Shown here piece after piece: positions 4,962-23,602 of a DNA stretch of 41,961 bases. The DNA is from a virus (lineage: Duplodnaviria > Heunggongvirae > Uroviricota > Caudoviricetes), in the IMG/VR virus record IMGVR_UViG_2695420685_000011; one strand, given 5' to 3'. The translations under genes and the position numbers were made by a program. Position 1 is the first letter of the stretch, and the number at the start of each line of letters is the position of its first letter. The notes below the pieces were generated by a model. That model was not told where the DNA came from. It searched no databases and saw nothing but the letters and a program-made list of their open reading frames with translations.

Positions 4962-5606
4962 CTAATGAACGGTCACTCGGCCACAGAACCGGTTTTCTAT
5001 CTTTTCTACAGCGTTATCTAGCATTCTCATCACTGATCTGGCTCTTGCTTCAACCGTGCGATATCGGTTGGAAACGACGAAGGTTTGCAGATCCCCCCTT
5101 TGCGGATGCAGGTGAATTTTTGTCAGTTCCCCGCACATCAACGCATCAATACGAGCGACATACAGACGGTCTAATGATGCTCGTTGTGACCGCAAGTAAT
5201 CTCGCTCTGAGAGAGCGACCCCCGGGCGTAGGCCAGCAATGGCGTTAAAGTTTGAAATAGCAGTTTTGTGGCAAAACTTTTCGATATCGAGGGCTAACTC
5301 AATACATCGATCTTCATTGGTATGGCCGACCAAATCCAACGTGTAGGCCATAACATCAGCAGGTGTGCGATCGATAACAAAGCCTTCAACACCACGCGTA
5401 AGTAGCTCTATATGCTTTGCTATTTCCATTTGAATCTGAAGCCGCTCATATAGAGGCATAGACTCACCTACTCGAACACCGAGTCGGCTCATCAAACTTC
5501 CGACACCAGCATCCACGTAAGGGATTCCGTAATGTTTGTCGATATATTTTGCCAGGGTTGTTTTCCCACTGCCCTGAGCACCAGTGATCCCAATCCGGTA
5601 ATCCAT
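4962..5606 (-). CDS. P-loop nucleoside/nucleotide kinase (possible dNMP kinase)
   Basis: N-terminal Walker A IGITGAQGSGKTT; start overlaps the DHFR stop (TAATG); sits in the nucleotide-metabolism operon. Confidence 0.6.
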   Translation of the reverse strand: MDYRIGITGAQGSGKTTLAKYIDKHYGIPYVDAGVGSLMSRLGVRVGESMPLYERLQIQMEIAKHIELLTRGVEGFVIDRTPADVMAYTLDLVGHTNEDRCIELALDIEKFCHKTAISNFNAIAGLRPGVALSERDYLRSQRASLDRLYVARIDALMCGELTKIHLHPQRGDLQTFVVSNRYRTVEARARSVMRMLDNAVEKIENRFCGRVTVH

Positions 5607-6082
5607 TACGACCTTCTGTATACGATCTGCGAAAAGCCAGGCTCTTCCTCGCTGGCTCGTTGGGTAAAAACTGTTTCAACAGGCACAAAGCCTAAATTAC
5701 GCATCATGCTTGCCGGGAAGAATGCATCGGCGTTTGGCACATCAACGCCGATGTGGGAGAGCCAAATCTCTTCAACATGCGGCATGAATAGCGAGTAAAT
5801 TTGTTCCCCGCCAATCACCCACACAGGCTCTGGTAATCGCAACACATCATCCACACCAGCAGGGTAGAATCCATTTGGTACAAAGCCATGAGAGCGCGTC
5901 AAAACGAGGTTATGACGCTCTGGAAGAGGGCGTTTGAGACTTTCCATCGTTTTACGCCCCATAACGACAGTGGCTTTTTTGGTGAGTCTCTTAAATAGCT
6001 TCAGATCGGTAGAACAACGCCAGGGCAGTTCGTTCGCTATGCCGATCTCATAGTTACGGCCAACAGCAGCTATCATCTTCAT
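5606..6082 (-). CDS. folA: dihydrofolate reductase
   Basis: MIAAVGRNYEIG..LPW N-terminus, VVMGRKT and VIGGEQIY motifs typical of DHFR. Confidence 0.9.
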   Translation of the reverse strand: MKMIAAVGRNYEIGIANELPWRCSTDLKLFKRLTKKATVVMGRKTMESLKRPLPERHNLVLTRSHGFVPNGFYPAGVDDVLRLPEPVWVIGGEQIYSLFMPHVEEIWLSHIGVDVPNADAFFPASMMRNLGFVPVETVFTQRASEEEPGFSQIVYRRS

Positions 6083-19790: not shown

Positions 19791-20003
19791 TTAGTGTATT
19801 TTCTTTAACAGACCCCAAAGTGTTCCGGCTTTTGTAGTCAGTTTTCCTGTTTCTGGATCGTACATACGCCATTCACGCCGCTGGTGGACGATATACCCAT
19901 CTTCACGTTCCAGACGCTCAAGAATGCCAGGTTGCTTGAAACCCTTAGCACGCCAGTAGCCGCTTGTTTTCTCGATTTCCAGACCTGCCAGTGTTAATGC
20001 CAT
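19791..20003 (-). CDS. hypothetical protein
   Basis: ORF with GGAGG SD; start overlaps the stop of the upstream gene (TAATG). Confidence 0.5.
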   Translation of the reverse strand: MALTLAGLEIEKTSGYWRAKGFKQPGILERLEREDGYIVHQRREWRMYDPETGKLTTKAGTLWGLLKKIH

Positions 20004-20338
20004 TATCCAACCTCCTTGCAGTCATCGAAAAGGTAGCTTTGCTGAGAAGCGTGAACGCCATAGAAGCCCTTGTATTTGTTGTATACGAAGTGGTCTTCTC
20101 CGACGCCGGTTAATTTGCCATTACGGTTTGTGAGATATGGGGATGACAATACTCGATCGTCACGCACAACATAGAACTGGTCGCCGCTGTCTACGACCAT
20201 CGCTCCATATGGTGCTTTTATGACGTCGGTAAGAGCGCCATTCTTAACGTCGGCTACAGACATTTCACACTGATAAACAGTGGTGTCGGCCACAACGATC
20301 GAAGAAAGGAACAACAGCGCGAATGGGATGGCCTTCAT
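20003..20338 (-). CDS. secreted hypothetical protein
   Basis: N-terminal hydrophobic signal-peptide-like segment MKAIPFALLFLSSIVVA; AGAGGTGG SD. Confidence 0.6.
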   Translation of the reverse strand: MKAIPFALLFLSSIVVADTTVYQCEMSVADVKNGALTDVIKAPYGAMVVDSGDQFYVVRDDRVLSSPYLTNRNGKLTGVGEDHFVYNKYKGFYGVHASQQSYLFDDCKEVG

Positions 20339-20514
20339 GCTGCCACCTCTTTGATTACATCAAATGCTGAATTAAATACGAGCACGATAGCCAAAGCGTT
20401 TATGACTACGTCGTTCACCGGGGAAAAGACTTTACGAATGACACCAGTGAAAATGCAGTCGATGACAAAAGCTATTGACACGATGAGTAACAAGTATTCA
20501 ATAAAAATCTTCAT
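20335..20514 (-). CDS. small membrane protein (59 aa; not in ORF track)
   Basis: My own translation: MKIFIEYLLLIVSIAFVIDCIFTG..., hydrophobic; stop overlaps the start of the next gene (ATGA); no clear SD. Confidence 0.35.
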   Translation of the reverse strand: MKIFIEYLLLIVSIAFVIDCIFTGVIRKVFSPVNDVVINALAIVLVFNSAFDVIKEVAA

Positions 20515-20884: not shown

Positions 20885-21310
20885 TCAATCATCTTGTTTA
20901 GGGAAAAACTGTTCAATAACTCTGTCAACGGCTGTGTCTATATGGAGTAGATGCCACACAACCATATCTTTGCTCCCCATGCCTTGTGTGAATATCACGT
21001 CATACTTACGCCATGCGCAGTGGAACCAATATGCTGAGTCATCAATTGGTAAATCCTCTCCCGCCTCTTTGAAGTATTTCAGCAGCATTGCTTGCTCTGC
21101 CGTTGGCGTTGGACCTATTTCCTGAGCGTACATACGGATAAATCGCTGCCAGTCTGTCTCGTCGGTGGTCGGATCTGGTGGATTCATTTCGGCGATAGCG
21201 TTTCGTAGCTGATGCGCCCAATCAGGTTCAGGAAAGCCTTTTGATACTTCATCATCAATAACATCCAGAGCCGCGTTTGCGGCATCGTAGAGTTTCTTAA
21301 TAGCTGTCAT
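20885..21310 (-). CDS. hypothetical protein
   Basis: ORF from track; acidic; no motifs. Confidence 0.55.
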   Translation of the reverse strand: MTAIKKLYDAANAALDVIDDEVSKGFPEPDWAHQLRNAIAEMNPPDPTTDETDWQRFIRMYAQEIGPTPTAEQAMLLKYFKEAGEDLPIDDSAYWFHCAWRKYDVIFTQGMGSKDMVVWHLLHIDTAVDRVIEQFFPKQDD

Positions 21311-21360
21311 ATTTTCTTAACCCTTTAAACAAATTGTTTTCTTAATAAGATAATTGCGAT

Positions 21361-21386
21361 AAAAAAGGCGTCCAACTGGACGCCTG
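21361..21386 (-). terminator. rho-independent terminator after the SPFH gene
   Basis: Stem AGGCGTCCA/TGGACGCCT with T6 on the minus strand. Confidence 0.65.
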
Positions 21387-21401
21387 AACTTTTAAGGGGA
21401 G

Positions 21402-22232
21402 TTATTTCACTGTAATGAAAGGAGTGTTAGCCCCTTGAGTCATGTACTGCGGTAACTGGCCATTCCATTTATTGATGGCTTCCAGCTCCATAACGTTCGG
21501 GTTTTGACGCAGAGCTTCACCGCGCAGACGAATGGCGTCGGCTTCTGCTTGCGCACGAGCACGGATAGCATCAGCTTCACCATTAGCCTGTTCACGTAGC
21601 ATATTCGCCTCAGCTTTACGCTGTTCAACTTCCTGCTGACGTTGCAGAGTACGCTGGTTAGCCGTTACTTTGGCGTTGATAGATTCAATGACGGTTTTTG
21701 GGTAATCAGGCTTTCCAACCCATGACAGGCTCAGTACCTCAATACCAACCGGAGACATCTCTTTCTGAATATCTTTCAGTGCGTTGTCCAGCAATTGCGC
21801 CTTACCACCGTCGATAAATGAGTCAGTGGTCATACGGCTGGCCAAACGGTTTAGAGAGTCGGCAATTTTCTGACGCAGATCTGATTCGGTGATATCGTCT
21901 ACGCCTTTGCGATAGGTCTGGAACACCGTCGTTACCTTGTCACGATTAACCAGATACGCAACGCCAATTTTGTGACCAATAGCAGTACCGTCACTCATCT
22001 GGAATGTGAACGGCTCGTCGTAGGTCTTCATTTGTTTGAAGGTCGGGAATACGTAAAGTTCGGTGTTAAGACCTGTCCATTGGCGACCAACGCCAACCAC
22101 TTCACCGATCCCTTTGTCTTCACCTAATTTGTTTACTTTGATGCCAACGTATCCAGGCTCCACGCGATCACAGCCAGTAAGACCCATTGTGCAAATAGCC
22201 GCCAGAGCAACTGCAAGTAAACCTTTCTTCAT
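21402..22232 (-). CDS. SPFH/band-7 (prohibitin/flotillin-like) lipoprotein
   Basis: Lipobox LTGC after a signal sequence, then a band-7-like core and a C-terminal A/E/R-rich coiled coil. Confidence 0.75.
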   Translation of the reverse strand: MKKGLLAVALAAICTMGLTGCDRVEPGYVGIKVNKLGEDKGIGEVVGVGRQWTGLNTELYVFPTFKQMKTYDEPFTFQMSDGTAIGHKIGVAYLVNRDKVTTVFQTYRKGVDDITESDLRQKIADSLNRLASRMTTDSFIDGGKAQLLDNALKDIQKEMSPVGIEVLSLSWVGKPDYPKTVIESINAKVTANQRTLQRQQEVEQRKAEANMLREQANGEADAIRARAQAEADAIRLRGEALRQNPNVMELEAINKWNGQLPQYMTQGANTPFITVK

Positions 22233-22235
22233 TAC

Positions 22236-22436
22236 TTATTTCCCCTTTGCTTTGATTAATGAGTTGATAAACTTACGACCAGCAATAAGACCGATTACAG
22301 GAGCACCAAAACCAACGATAACTCCAAACATGACGGCTAAATCACTCTTGGTAGAAATCAGCGACGGAACCAGTAAACCGTAGATGAGAGCCACTGAAAG
22401 GCCTGTGGCTACTGCCAATAGATAGATTTTGATCAT
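22236..22436 (-). CDS. small two-TM membrane protein (possible NfeD-like partner of the SPFH protein)
   Basis: 66 aa with two hydrophobic helices; stop 3 nt before the SPFH gene start; conserved leader upstream. Confidence 0.55.
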   Translation of the reverse strand: MIKIYLLAVATGLSVALIYGLLVPSLISTKSDLAVMFGVIVGFGAPVIGLIAGRKFINSLIKAKGK

Positions 22437-22465
22437 GTGTTTTCCTATGTGGTTGTTATGCGAAA

Positions 22466-22494
22466 ATAATAAGTAAGTACTTATATATTTTCAA
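22466..22494 (-). promoter_or_regulatory. sigma70-like promoter (TTGAAA-N17-TATTAT on minus strand)
   Basis: -35 at 22489-22494 and -10 at 22466-22471 read on the minus strand, about 30 nt upstream of the 22436 start; palindromic motif lies in the spacer. Confidence 0.45.
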
Positions 22495-22498
22495 GAGA

Positions 22499-22523
22499 TA
22501 AAAAAGGCGTCCTGTGGACGCCT
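22499..22523 (-). terminator. rho-independent terminator after the recombinase gene
   Basis: Stem AGGCGTCC/GGACGCCT with T-run on the minus strand. Confidence 0.65.
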
Positions 22524-22528
22524 TGTGT

Positions 22529-23602
22529 TTACTCTTCTACTGACTCGGTGGGGTTGTCTTTTGCTCTTCGGTCGTCGATTGCCTGCAAAGCCGCAATGAT
22601 TTCAGCCAGTGGCTTCTCCCGATACATCTCGACGATCTGCGATTTGGTGTATTTCTTGTCACCAATTTCAACTCGCCCGCTGGCGTTCTTTGGCAGGTAT
22701 CCTTCTTCCAGCATGTACTCGACGAGCGATTCGATAACGTCGAGGCCACGAGTAGGATCGAAGTAGAATTTCCAGGTGCATTTGCCATACGGTGGTGCAA
22801 CTTTGTTTTTGATGCATTCTGCGCCTACGTCTTGGCCGATCTTCTCTTTACCATCCTTCATCACCGATGCACCAAGACGGATACGTACAGAAGCGTAGAA
22901 CTTCGGTGAATCTCCACCTGGCGACGTAGTAGGGTCGCCAAACATTACACCGATTTTTGTGCGAACCTGATTCAAGAAGATGATGCAGGCGTTGTATTTG
23001 CGTGCCCACAAAGCCAGAGTAGGGAAGTTCGCACTTGTCGCACGAGCCAGTGCCGTATTGTCGTTCATGTTTAGCTGATCTTTGTCTTTGGCAGTGCCTT
23101 CAGCCATCTTTTCGAACTTCTCGGCTTTGGAGTTCGGAACCATAGACGCAAGTGAGTCAGCCACGATACAGATAGGTGCTGATTCAGGGATAAGCTCTTC
23201 ATCACGTACCAATTTAAGTATTGTGCCGATCAACTCTACAGAGTCTTCGAAGGTGTCAGGCTGCTTGTATACCCACTGACCGTCATCCTCATCTGCGTTC
23301 AGGCCATTGGCTACAGCCAGGCCAACGTCAAAACTGTTTTCATGATCGAGGAATACCGCCAGACCATCTTGTTTTTGAGCGGAGATCATCGCTGCTGTTG
23401 CAAGGAACGTTTTCCCTGCACTTGGAGGACCGAATACTTCGACGATACGACCACATGGGAAGCCGCCATCGTAACGACCAGAAATAGCTTTGTTTAACGG
23501 TGGAAAGCCTGTATCAATCCAATGAGTTACTTTCTGAATTTCGTCGTTGCTACCGATTTTCTTTTTCAGAGCAAGTGCCAGTGCGGATTTTCCTTTTGCC
23601 AT
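22529..23602 (-). CDS. RecA-like recombinase (RecA/UvsX/Sak4 superfamily)
   Basis: Walker A GPPSAGKT, RecA-like core and Walker B-like IVADSLASM; AAAGGAGC SD. Confidence 0.85.
   Translation of the reverse strand: MAKGKSALALALKKKIGSNDEIQKVTHWIDTGFPPLNKAISGRYDGGFPCGRIVEVFGPPSAGKTFLATAAMISAQKQDGLAVFLDHENSFDVGLAVANGLNADEDDGQWVYKQPDTFEDSVELIGTILKLVRDEELIPESAPICIVADSLASMVPNSKAEKFEKMAEGTAKDKDQLNMNDNTALARATSANFPTLALWARKYNACIIFLNQVRTKIGVMFGDPTTSPGGDSPKFYASVRIRLGASVMKDGKEKIGQDVGAECIKNKVAPPYGKCTWKFYFDPTRGLDVIESLVEYMLEEGYLPKNASGRVEIGDKKYTKSQIVEMYREKPLAEIIAALQAIDDRRAKDNPTESVEE

Follow-up and report, generated by a model that had tools for sequence, protein, structure and literature searches.

A window of 41,961 nucleotides (the whole stretch of DNA that was analysed, IMG/VR virus record IMGVR_UViG_2695420685_000011, Caudoviricetes) contains two adjacent genes on the minus strand, one for a helical hairpin membrane protein of 66 amino acids (22236..22436) and one for a lipoprotein of 276 amino acids with an SPFH/band-7 domain (21402..22232). 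The two open reading frames were confirmed at 22436..22236 and 22232..21402, the second beginning 3 nucleotides past the TAA stop codon of the first. Read along the coding strand, the order is a recA-like gene ending at 22529, a hairpin, a promoter-like site, the ribosome-binding site AGGAAA (22441-22446, minus strand) 5' of the small gene, the small gene itself, the SPFH gene, and a second hairpin. Homologues were found with E-values as low as 1e-175 (lipoprotein) and 6e-30 (small protein), so that the two reading frames are genuine genes and have not arisen by chance. Escherichia phage CMS-2020a shares about 99% identity with the window and phage Cyrano 95%; the window represents a phage-plasmid of the SSU5/pMT1 type, in agreement with a preliminary description of the locus, made from the sequence alone, which had assigned the pair to a mobile element.

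The amino terminus of the lipoprotein reads MKK-GLLAVALAAICTMG-LTG-C21, with the lipobox LTGC and MKKGLLAVALAAICTMGLTG preceding cysteine 21. It has the basic n-region, the hydrophobic h-region, a lipobox of the form [LVI][ASTVI][GAS]C and a cysteine within about 15-35 residues, all of which characterize a lipoprotein signal. The codon of cysteine 21 occupies 22172-22170 on the minus strand and is followed by aspartate 22 at position +2. According to the lipoprotein sorting rules of E. coli an aspartate at +2 is a retention signal for the inner membrane, and the residue at +3 modulates this avoidance of the Lol pathway. In an alignment of 63 sequences reaching down to 30% identity only three residues are invariant, namely cysteine 21, glycine 49 and tryptophan 256. 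A lipobox is present in most of 150 family representatives, and the close enterobacterial copies all read C-D-R-V-E-P-G, always with aspartate at +2.

Residues 23-209 match Pfam Band_7 (PF01145) over positions 2-176 of the 176 in the profile (E 2.6e-30, 106.2 bits with a cutoff of 23.6), and the protein also matches PHROG 200, labelled 'lipoprotein', with an E-value of 3e-108. An AlphaFold model built on the 63-sequence alignment (mean predicted local distance difference test, pLDDT, 90.8) yielded an SPFH1 beta region at residues 21-95, an alpha/beta SPFH2 region at 97-176, a long helix of 65 residues from 179 to 243 and a further helix from 245 to 255. These are followed by a conserved carboxy-terminal tail, W256-x-G258-x-x-P261, which is compatible with a cap segment and is no proof of one. 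When the model was compared with the PDB by Foldseek, HflK (7vhq_E, 3.6e-14) was found first, followed by HflC, the prohibitins PHB1/2 and erlin1/2 at about 1e-13 to 1e-14; stomatin, flotillin and QmcA ranked below these, QmcA at position 36 with an E-value of 7.4e-8. All 65 PDB chains found at E <= 1e-3 are SPFH proteins or vault. The preliminary description had named structure prediction as the check for a band-7 fold, and the fold is present; its account of an SPFH/band-7 lipoprotein with an LTGC lipobox and a coiled-coil tail, encoded behind a 66-residue protein with two transmembrane segments, agrees with the reading frames, the Pfam match and the AlphaFold models alike. When the PDB was searched by sequence only, HflK was the sole match (E 0.007). 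The NCBIfam models for hflC (TIGR01932, 30.2 bits, cutoff 134.4) and hflK (TIGR01933, 18.7 bits, cutoff 159.4) stayed far below their cutoffs, and assignment as an HflK/HflC or flotillin equivalog was therefore rejected. The lipoprotein is a true SPFH protein, of the kind which faces away from the cytoplasm, and not an orthologue of HflK or HflC. Rejected as well was the old label 'serine protease' which is attached to the homologues of phiP27, P88 and Stx phages; no support for it was obtained, the only domains detected being Band_7 and a weak Flot tail.

The 66-residue protein has two hydrophobic segments, one near residues 4-24 and the other near 33-53, and a carboxy-terminal tail with a net charge of +5. 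Its AlphaFold model (pLDDT 85.7) consists of a helix from 2 to 27, a turn of four residues and a helix from 32 to 65, and the predicted topology has both termini in the cytoplasm and a short periplasmic turn. The turn carries the conserved motif Y-G-L-L-V-P-x-L-I-S-x-x-S. The protein matches PHROG 1130, labelled 'membrane protein', with an E-value of 2e-25; no Pfam family, NfeD included, was found for it or for 13 of its relatives even at E <= 10. The preliminary description had called it NfeD-like. NfeD proteins are defined by a carboxy-terminal OB-fold, for which a 66-residue hairpin has no room, so that 'NfeD-like' can be upheld as a positional analogy only, the two having in common no more than that they are membrane proteins and that their genes immediately precede an SPFH gene. 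Homology to NfeD (PF01957) was rejected on the grounds of the all-helical structure, the missing OB-fold and the missing Pfam match.

The pairing of the two genes is widely conserved. In every one of the 80 viral loci (80/80) the gene directly 5' of the SPFH gene encodes a homologous hairpin protein of 62-72 amino acids with the motif given above, and the same was seen in phiP27 and P88; in phiP27 the small-partner homologue has 62 amino acids (L002 3304-3492, minus strand), overlaps the start of L05 by 4 nucleotides and is unannotated. In a collection holding one genome per species, scanned with 14 sequences, the hairpin lies directly upstream in 67 of the 80 loci. The linked loci span Gammaproteobacteria, Betaproteobacteria, Actinobacteriota and other groups, with Enterobacterales, Xenorhabdus, Sutterella, Dyella and other Rhodanobacteraceae, Leptospira, Bacteroidota and an actinobacterial metagenome-assembled genome among them. 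Another finding was that the two proteins occur as fusions. Among 150 distant representatives, 13-14 SPFH proteins of 330-390 amino acids carry the hairpin at their amino terminus, and one carries it at the carboxy terminus; the Dyella copy is a fusion of 344 amino acids. With a profile of the small proteins the amino-terminal fusions scored E-values between 3e-10 and 4e-3; none of 900 decoys did better than 0.056. Proline 24, serine 28 and glycine 38 are invariant across split and fused relatives. In the fusions the second transmembrane segment is followed by a basic linker, then by a third hydrophobic segment which corresponds to the former lipoprotein signal peptide, and then by the SPFH domain; this arrangement would place the SPFH domain in the periplasm, anchored to the inner membrane, and it argues for the inner membrane independently of the residue at +2. 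As judged from linkage and fusion, the 66-residue protein is a genuine, dedicated partner of the SPFH protein.

Some further observations concern the junction between the two genes. In the window both share one reading frame and are separated by the TAA stop and a single codon, GTA (22229-22245), so that one change in the stop codon would restore the fused architecture seen in other phyla. In chromosomes of Shigella flexneri and E. coli (L088, about 5210-6000, and L089) the pair is split by an element of about 790 base pairs with terminal repeats of the IS1 type. In the class of copies with 78% identity (L049-L083) and in a P1-like plasmid (L166 6775-7020) a run of 6-7 A's close to the small gene's 3' end alters the carboxy terminus and the stop of the small protein between near-identical copies, and in most of these the small reading frame continues into the SPFH gene, out of frame with it.

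The unit is bounded by two terminator-like hairpins on the minus strand (22524..22504 and 21385..21366), which bears out the terminators that had been noted on both sides in the preliminary description. The upstream hairpin (22504..22524) reads AAGGCGTCC-ACA-GGACGCCTT followed by TTTTTT, with a GC-rich stem of 9 base pairs and a T6 tail; it ends the recA-like gene and marks the upstream edge of the unit. The downstream hairpin (21366..21385), AGGCGTCC-AGTT-GGACGCCT followed by TTTTTT, has a stem of 8 base pairs with a T6 tail and ends the unit. Between the upstream hairpin and the small gene a signal scan found a promoter-like site of the sigma-70 type (22466..22494, minus strand), composed of TTGAAA (22494-22489), a spacer of 17 nucleotides and TATTAT (22471-22466), with 10 of 12 positions matching the consensus. 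The number of such sites in the region does not exceed the expectation from shuffled sequence (four terminators with 2.2 expected, two promoters with 3.1 expected), and the weight of these signals rests therefore on their conservation. The -35 element, the -10 element and the ribosome-binding site are kept in the copies of Yersinia pestis, Kluyvera and Cyrano, which are 80-95% identical overall; in these the -35 element is invariant and the -10 element is either TATTAT or TATCAT. In relatives the stem of the upstream hairpin shows a compensatory change from GGCGTCC/GGACGCC to GGCGCCC/GGGCGCC, in which a T-A pair is replaced by C-G.

Both flanking terminators share a string of 16 nucleotides, GATAAAAAAGGCGTCC on the plus strand (21356-21386 and 22494-22524), as well as the same stem, and differ in the loop only; a pattern search located the downstream copy at 21363-21384, with 0 occurrences expected by chance. 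The repeated terminator may mark the route by which the cassette was gained or lost.

Transcription of the 95%-identical Cyrano copy could be followed in a published re-analysis of RNA sequencing data from strain LF82 (PMC9928086), the supplementary table S1 of which gives log2(fpkm+5) values, fpkm denoting fragments per kilobase per million, for two replicates. Thirteen Cyrano 'morons' are reported there as expressed in lysogeny broth (LB), and CYRAN_56 and CYRAN_57, which correspond to the pair, are not among them (PMC9928086). In stationary LB cultures the values are 2.32/2.32 for CYRAN_56 and 4.30/3.02 for CYRAN_57, in Dulbecco's modified Eagle medium (DMEM) they are 3.1-5.0 and about 5, and after 6 h in THP-1 macrophages they reach 7.61/7.70 and 7.25/7.42 (PMC9928086). 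At this last time point the flanking genes for RecA (4.06/4.05) and CYRAN_58 (4.20/3.94) are at background (PMC9928086). As measured in two replicates and in a strain other than that of the window, the Cyrano pair thus rises about 30-fold in macrophages against flat neighbours. Transcription of this copy appears to be autonomous and condition-dependent. The pattern fits the promoter and the terminators described above and suggests that the lysogen expresses the pair under certain conditions, rather than as a portion of the lytic programme. A perfect palindrome of 10 base pairs, TAAGTACTTA (22474-22483, minus strand), lies within the 17-nucleotide spacer of the promoter-like site; it is conserved in the copies of Y. 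pestis and Kluyvera and has one mismatch in that of Cyrano. This palindrome is a candidate repressor operator, which may explain the silence of the pair in LB.

The genes are common and bear the labels 'SPFH domain-containing protein' and 'membrane protein'. The nucleotide identity of the window genes to several phages carrying PHROG 200 and PHROG 1130 members is 75-99%. In Y. pestis plasmid pG8786 the pair adjoins a recombinase gene. A Klebsiella relative of the phage-plasmid lacks the pair; in place of window positions 20902-22503, which hold a DUF7238 gene and the pair, it has 274 nucleotides, and homology resumes at 22503, right at the recA terminator. This presence in one relative and absence from the other identifies the pair as an accessory cassette. 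Of 5,426 complete genomes of E. coli, 737 have homologues, which are divided roughly evenly between chromosomes and plasmids, the carriers including SSU5-like elements, lambdoid prophages (next to int/xis), a P2-like phage and P1-like plasmids. By tblastn the SPFH protein was detected in 373 phage records; virulent phages of the N4-like, FelixO1-like, Bruynoghevirus and phiCbK-like groups are among them, and Lak and crAss-like phages are represented too. In four of these phages which were inspected the SPFH gene is located amid early and DNA-metabolism genes and never adjoins lysis genes. In Dyella and Leptospira the module lies amid ordinary chromosomal genes, outside prophages. The simplest history would be that of an old cellular membrane module which was captured repeatedly by phages.

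In P1-like plasmids such as that of E. coli ETEC1716 (L166) the pair occupies the interval from trnT to trnI, within the ban operon region, an accessory hotspot which in phage P1 (L168) holds plp, upl and tciABC. That Plp and Upl of P1 form an equivalent pair was considered and rejected, as Plp has 125 amino acids and is encoded on the opposite strand, and no match to the partner profile was found in the P1 region.

The reading which is preferred here, with a little more than even confidence, is that of a self-contained accessory operon of two genes which encodes a periplasm-facing SPFH scaffold of the inner membrane and its hairpin partner. After cleavage by signal peptidase II the SPFH protein would be anchored by lipid at cysteine 21, and with aspartate at +2 it would probably remain at the inner membrane, facing the periplasm. 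Its SPFH1 and SPFH2 regions, long wall helix and cap tail would make it a subunit of the HflK/C or prohibitin type. As every solved relative forms a ring or cage with the SPFH domains on the membrane and the long helices as its wall, such subunits could be expected to assemble into a homo-oligomeric ring or cage that fences a patch of membrane. Rather than a client, the hairpin protein is most likely a component at 1:1, a ratio implied by the fusions, and would form the transmembrane 'palisade' which a lipid-anchored subunit lacks. The weakest step is the benefit, which might consist in organising or protecting the inner membrane, or in sequestering a client within it, under stress or during infection.

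Several points weigh against this preferred reading. The partner is missing or unrecognisable in 13 of the 80 loci of the genome collection and in some virulent phages (DL54, M7), from which it follows that the SPFH protein can function without it. Arginine at +3 follows the aspartate at +2 and leaves some doubt about retention, so that the protein may be sorted to the outer membrane. In the family as a whole serine or threonine prevails at +2, with aspartate in 16 of 111. The induction in macrophages derives from two replicates of a re-analysed data set in which scattered other Cyrano genes also rise. A search of the literature accessible to searching found no experiment on the phage SPFH lipoprotein family, just annotations and speculation; several genome papers call the role of phage SPFH proteins unclear. 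Finally, an 'HflK/C-like' protein borne by a Pasteurella prophage, a possible homologue of the present family, has been reported in outer-membrane vesicles.

Among the alternatives are some which take the fold match to HflK and HflC as a guide to function. In one, a phage SPFH ring would capture FtsH or compete for it and would shift the turnover of regulators, as HflKC does with lambda CII, thereby biasing the decision between lysis and lysogeny or the quality control of membrane proteins. HflK and HflC are the nearest solved structures, HflK is the only match by sequence in the PDB, the weak NCBIfam matches are all to hflC or hflK, the predicted topology equals that of HflK/C (periplasmic, inner membrane), the pair lies in the early region by int/xis or cox in lambdoid and P2-like prophages, and other authors have speculated along similar lines. 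Identity to HflK is nevertheless only about 18%, the model scores of 19-30 bits compare with cutoffs of 134-159, and there is a single SPFH gene with a lipid anchor in place of a K/C pair with an amino-terminal transmembrane helix. Moreover the family occurs in obligately virulent phages, which make no lysogeny decision, and no ftsH gene is found near the chromosomal copies of Dyella and Leptospira; this explanation is therefore considered unlikely. A bolder form of it, to which a similarly small probability is given, supposes that the lipid-anchored ring and its hairpin are a counterpart of HflKC deployed by the phage, the ring caging from the periplasmic side of the inner membrane a specific host machine, FtsH or a complex for DNA entry or transport, so as to reset membrane proteolysis or exclude competitors. 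If this were true, the induction in macrophages would mean a raised tolerance to envelope stress in pathogenic hosts including Y. pestis and adherent-invasive E. coli. Exclusion of competitors has also been weighed on its own, as superinfection exclusion or anti-phage defence in which a periplasmic ring and its partner block DNA entry or another envelope step. The envelope location of the products, the variable cassette with its accessory hotspot in P1-like plasmids, and an early or autonomous position that would suit temperate and virulent phages alike are in favour of this. On the other hand neither protein matches any defence model of PADLOC-DB v2 at E <= 0.1, the LF82 lysogen hardly expresses the pair in LB, a condition in which exclusion genes are commonly active, the chromosomal contexts in Dyella and Leptospira are stable and of the housekeeping type, and no link was found in the literature, so that such a role too seems improbable.

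A role as host-interaction factor would require that the lipoprotein reaches the outer membrane or vesicles, for example as a TLR2 (Toll-like receptor 2) agonist, and would make the lipoprotein gene a virulence gene of lysogenic conversion. It draws on the Pasteurella multocida prophage protein mentioned above, an SPFH 'HflK/C-like' protein reported to occur in vesicles, to activate TLR1/2 and to aid virulence, as well as on the induction of the Cyrano copy in macrophages and the presence of the pair on pMT1-type plasmids of Y. pestis. Aspartate at +2 and the membrane-spanning fusions point instead to the inner membrane, copies exist in free-living bacteria and in virulent phages whose hosts are bacteria of soil and plants, which ill suits a host-directed role, TLR2 is activated by any triacylated lipoprotein, and the Pasteurella protein is no more than a possible homologue of the phage SPFH family; the idea is regarded as very unlikely. 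The faintest chance is given to a control of lysis, by which the pair would delay or tune the action of holins or spanins. The products are predicted to reside in the compartments in which holins and spanins operate, the inner membrane and the periplasm, but in the elements inspected the pair never adjoins lysis genes, the holin, endolysin and spanin of Cyrano being about 30 kb away, the N4-like, FelixO1-like and Bruynoghevirus copies lie amid early and DNA-metabolism genes, and the induction in macrophages occurs while lytic neighbours are silent. Superinfection exclusion and lysis timing had both been suggested in the preliminary description, together with a remodelling of the membrane in the plasmid state; a role specific to plasmids is weakened by the occurrence of the pair in strictly virulent phages and in ordinary chromosomal contexts.

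Compared with known systems, the pair is a variant of the established theme of an operon for an SPFH protein plus partner. With HflK/HflC, the best fold match, it shares the order of SPFH1, SPFH2, long helix and cap and the predicted periplasmic side, but HflK/HflC is a heteropair with amino-terminal transmembrane helices, in contrast to the single lipid-anchored SPFH protein with a partner of two transmembrane segments found here. The SPFH-NfeD operons QmcA-YbbJ, YqiK-YqiJ and PH1511-PH1510 likewise have a small membrane gene directly upstream of the SPFH gene, which is sometimes fused to it, and an operon logic of this type has been described for SPFH1, SPFH2 and SPFH5; they differ in that the partner has an OB-fold and the SPFH domain is cytoplasmic, whereas in the present pair the OB-fold is missing and the SPFH domain is predicted to be periplasmic. 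Prohibitin PHB1/2 and erlin1/2 are top-ranked folds (E about 1e-13) and form rings facing away from the cytoplasm which compartmentalise the membrane and gate access to proteolysis machinery, but they are eukaryotic, form heteromeric pairs, are anchored by transmembrane helices and have an identity of 15-18%. From the phage pairs of PHROG 200 and 1130 there is no structural difference, the genes of the window being direct members. Examples are phiP27 L05, P88 gp12/gp11, Cyrano CYRAN_57/56, phi1026b gp48 and an 'HflC/HflK family inner membrane lipoprotein' of BcepF1. Entries of these two groups are labelled 'lipoprotein', 'putative serine protease' or 'stomatin-like', and neither a function nor the pairing was noted in the searchable sources.

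The genes themselves are thus already annotated, and phage SPFH proteins have drawn comment repeatedly, though no function was attached to them. Added by the present analysis are the rejection of NfeD, the recognition of the hairpin partner from Rosetta-stone fusions together with the topology which these imply, the delimitation of the cassette, and the induction under stress or in macrophages taken from published data. SPFH scaffolds are well studied in their structures and poorly understood in their function in Gram-negative bacteria. Carriers of the pair include about one in seven complete E. coli genomes, pMT1-type plasmids of Y. pestis and hundreds of temperate and virulent phages. With a partner which is not NfeD and is fused elsewhere, and with a near-identical copy induced in macrophages, the pair offers a tractable two-gene system for a putative periplasm-facing SPFH ring. 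Should the function prove mundane, a better annotation would still be gained, the lipoprotein being no serine protease, the small protein no NfeD, and the small gene being absent from records such as that of phiP27.

The neighbourhood of the cassette deserves some minor remarks. Downstream of it (window 20003-20514) lie small genes for a secreted protein of 111 amino acids, a membrane protein of 59 amino acids and a 'Cra'-like product; their orthologues CYRAN_60-62 rise in macrophages more than the SPFH pair does, to log2 values of 8.3-9.0. Upstream, the RecA-like gene of the window (22529-23602) has 1,074 nucleotides and is an intein-free allele, as compared with its counterpart in L001 (9231-11570). 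In Cyrano and several plasmids this gene has about 2,340 nucleotides and is annotated as containing an intein or as a LAGLIDADG homing endonuclease.

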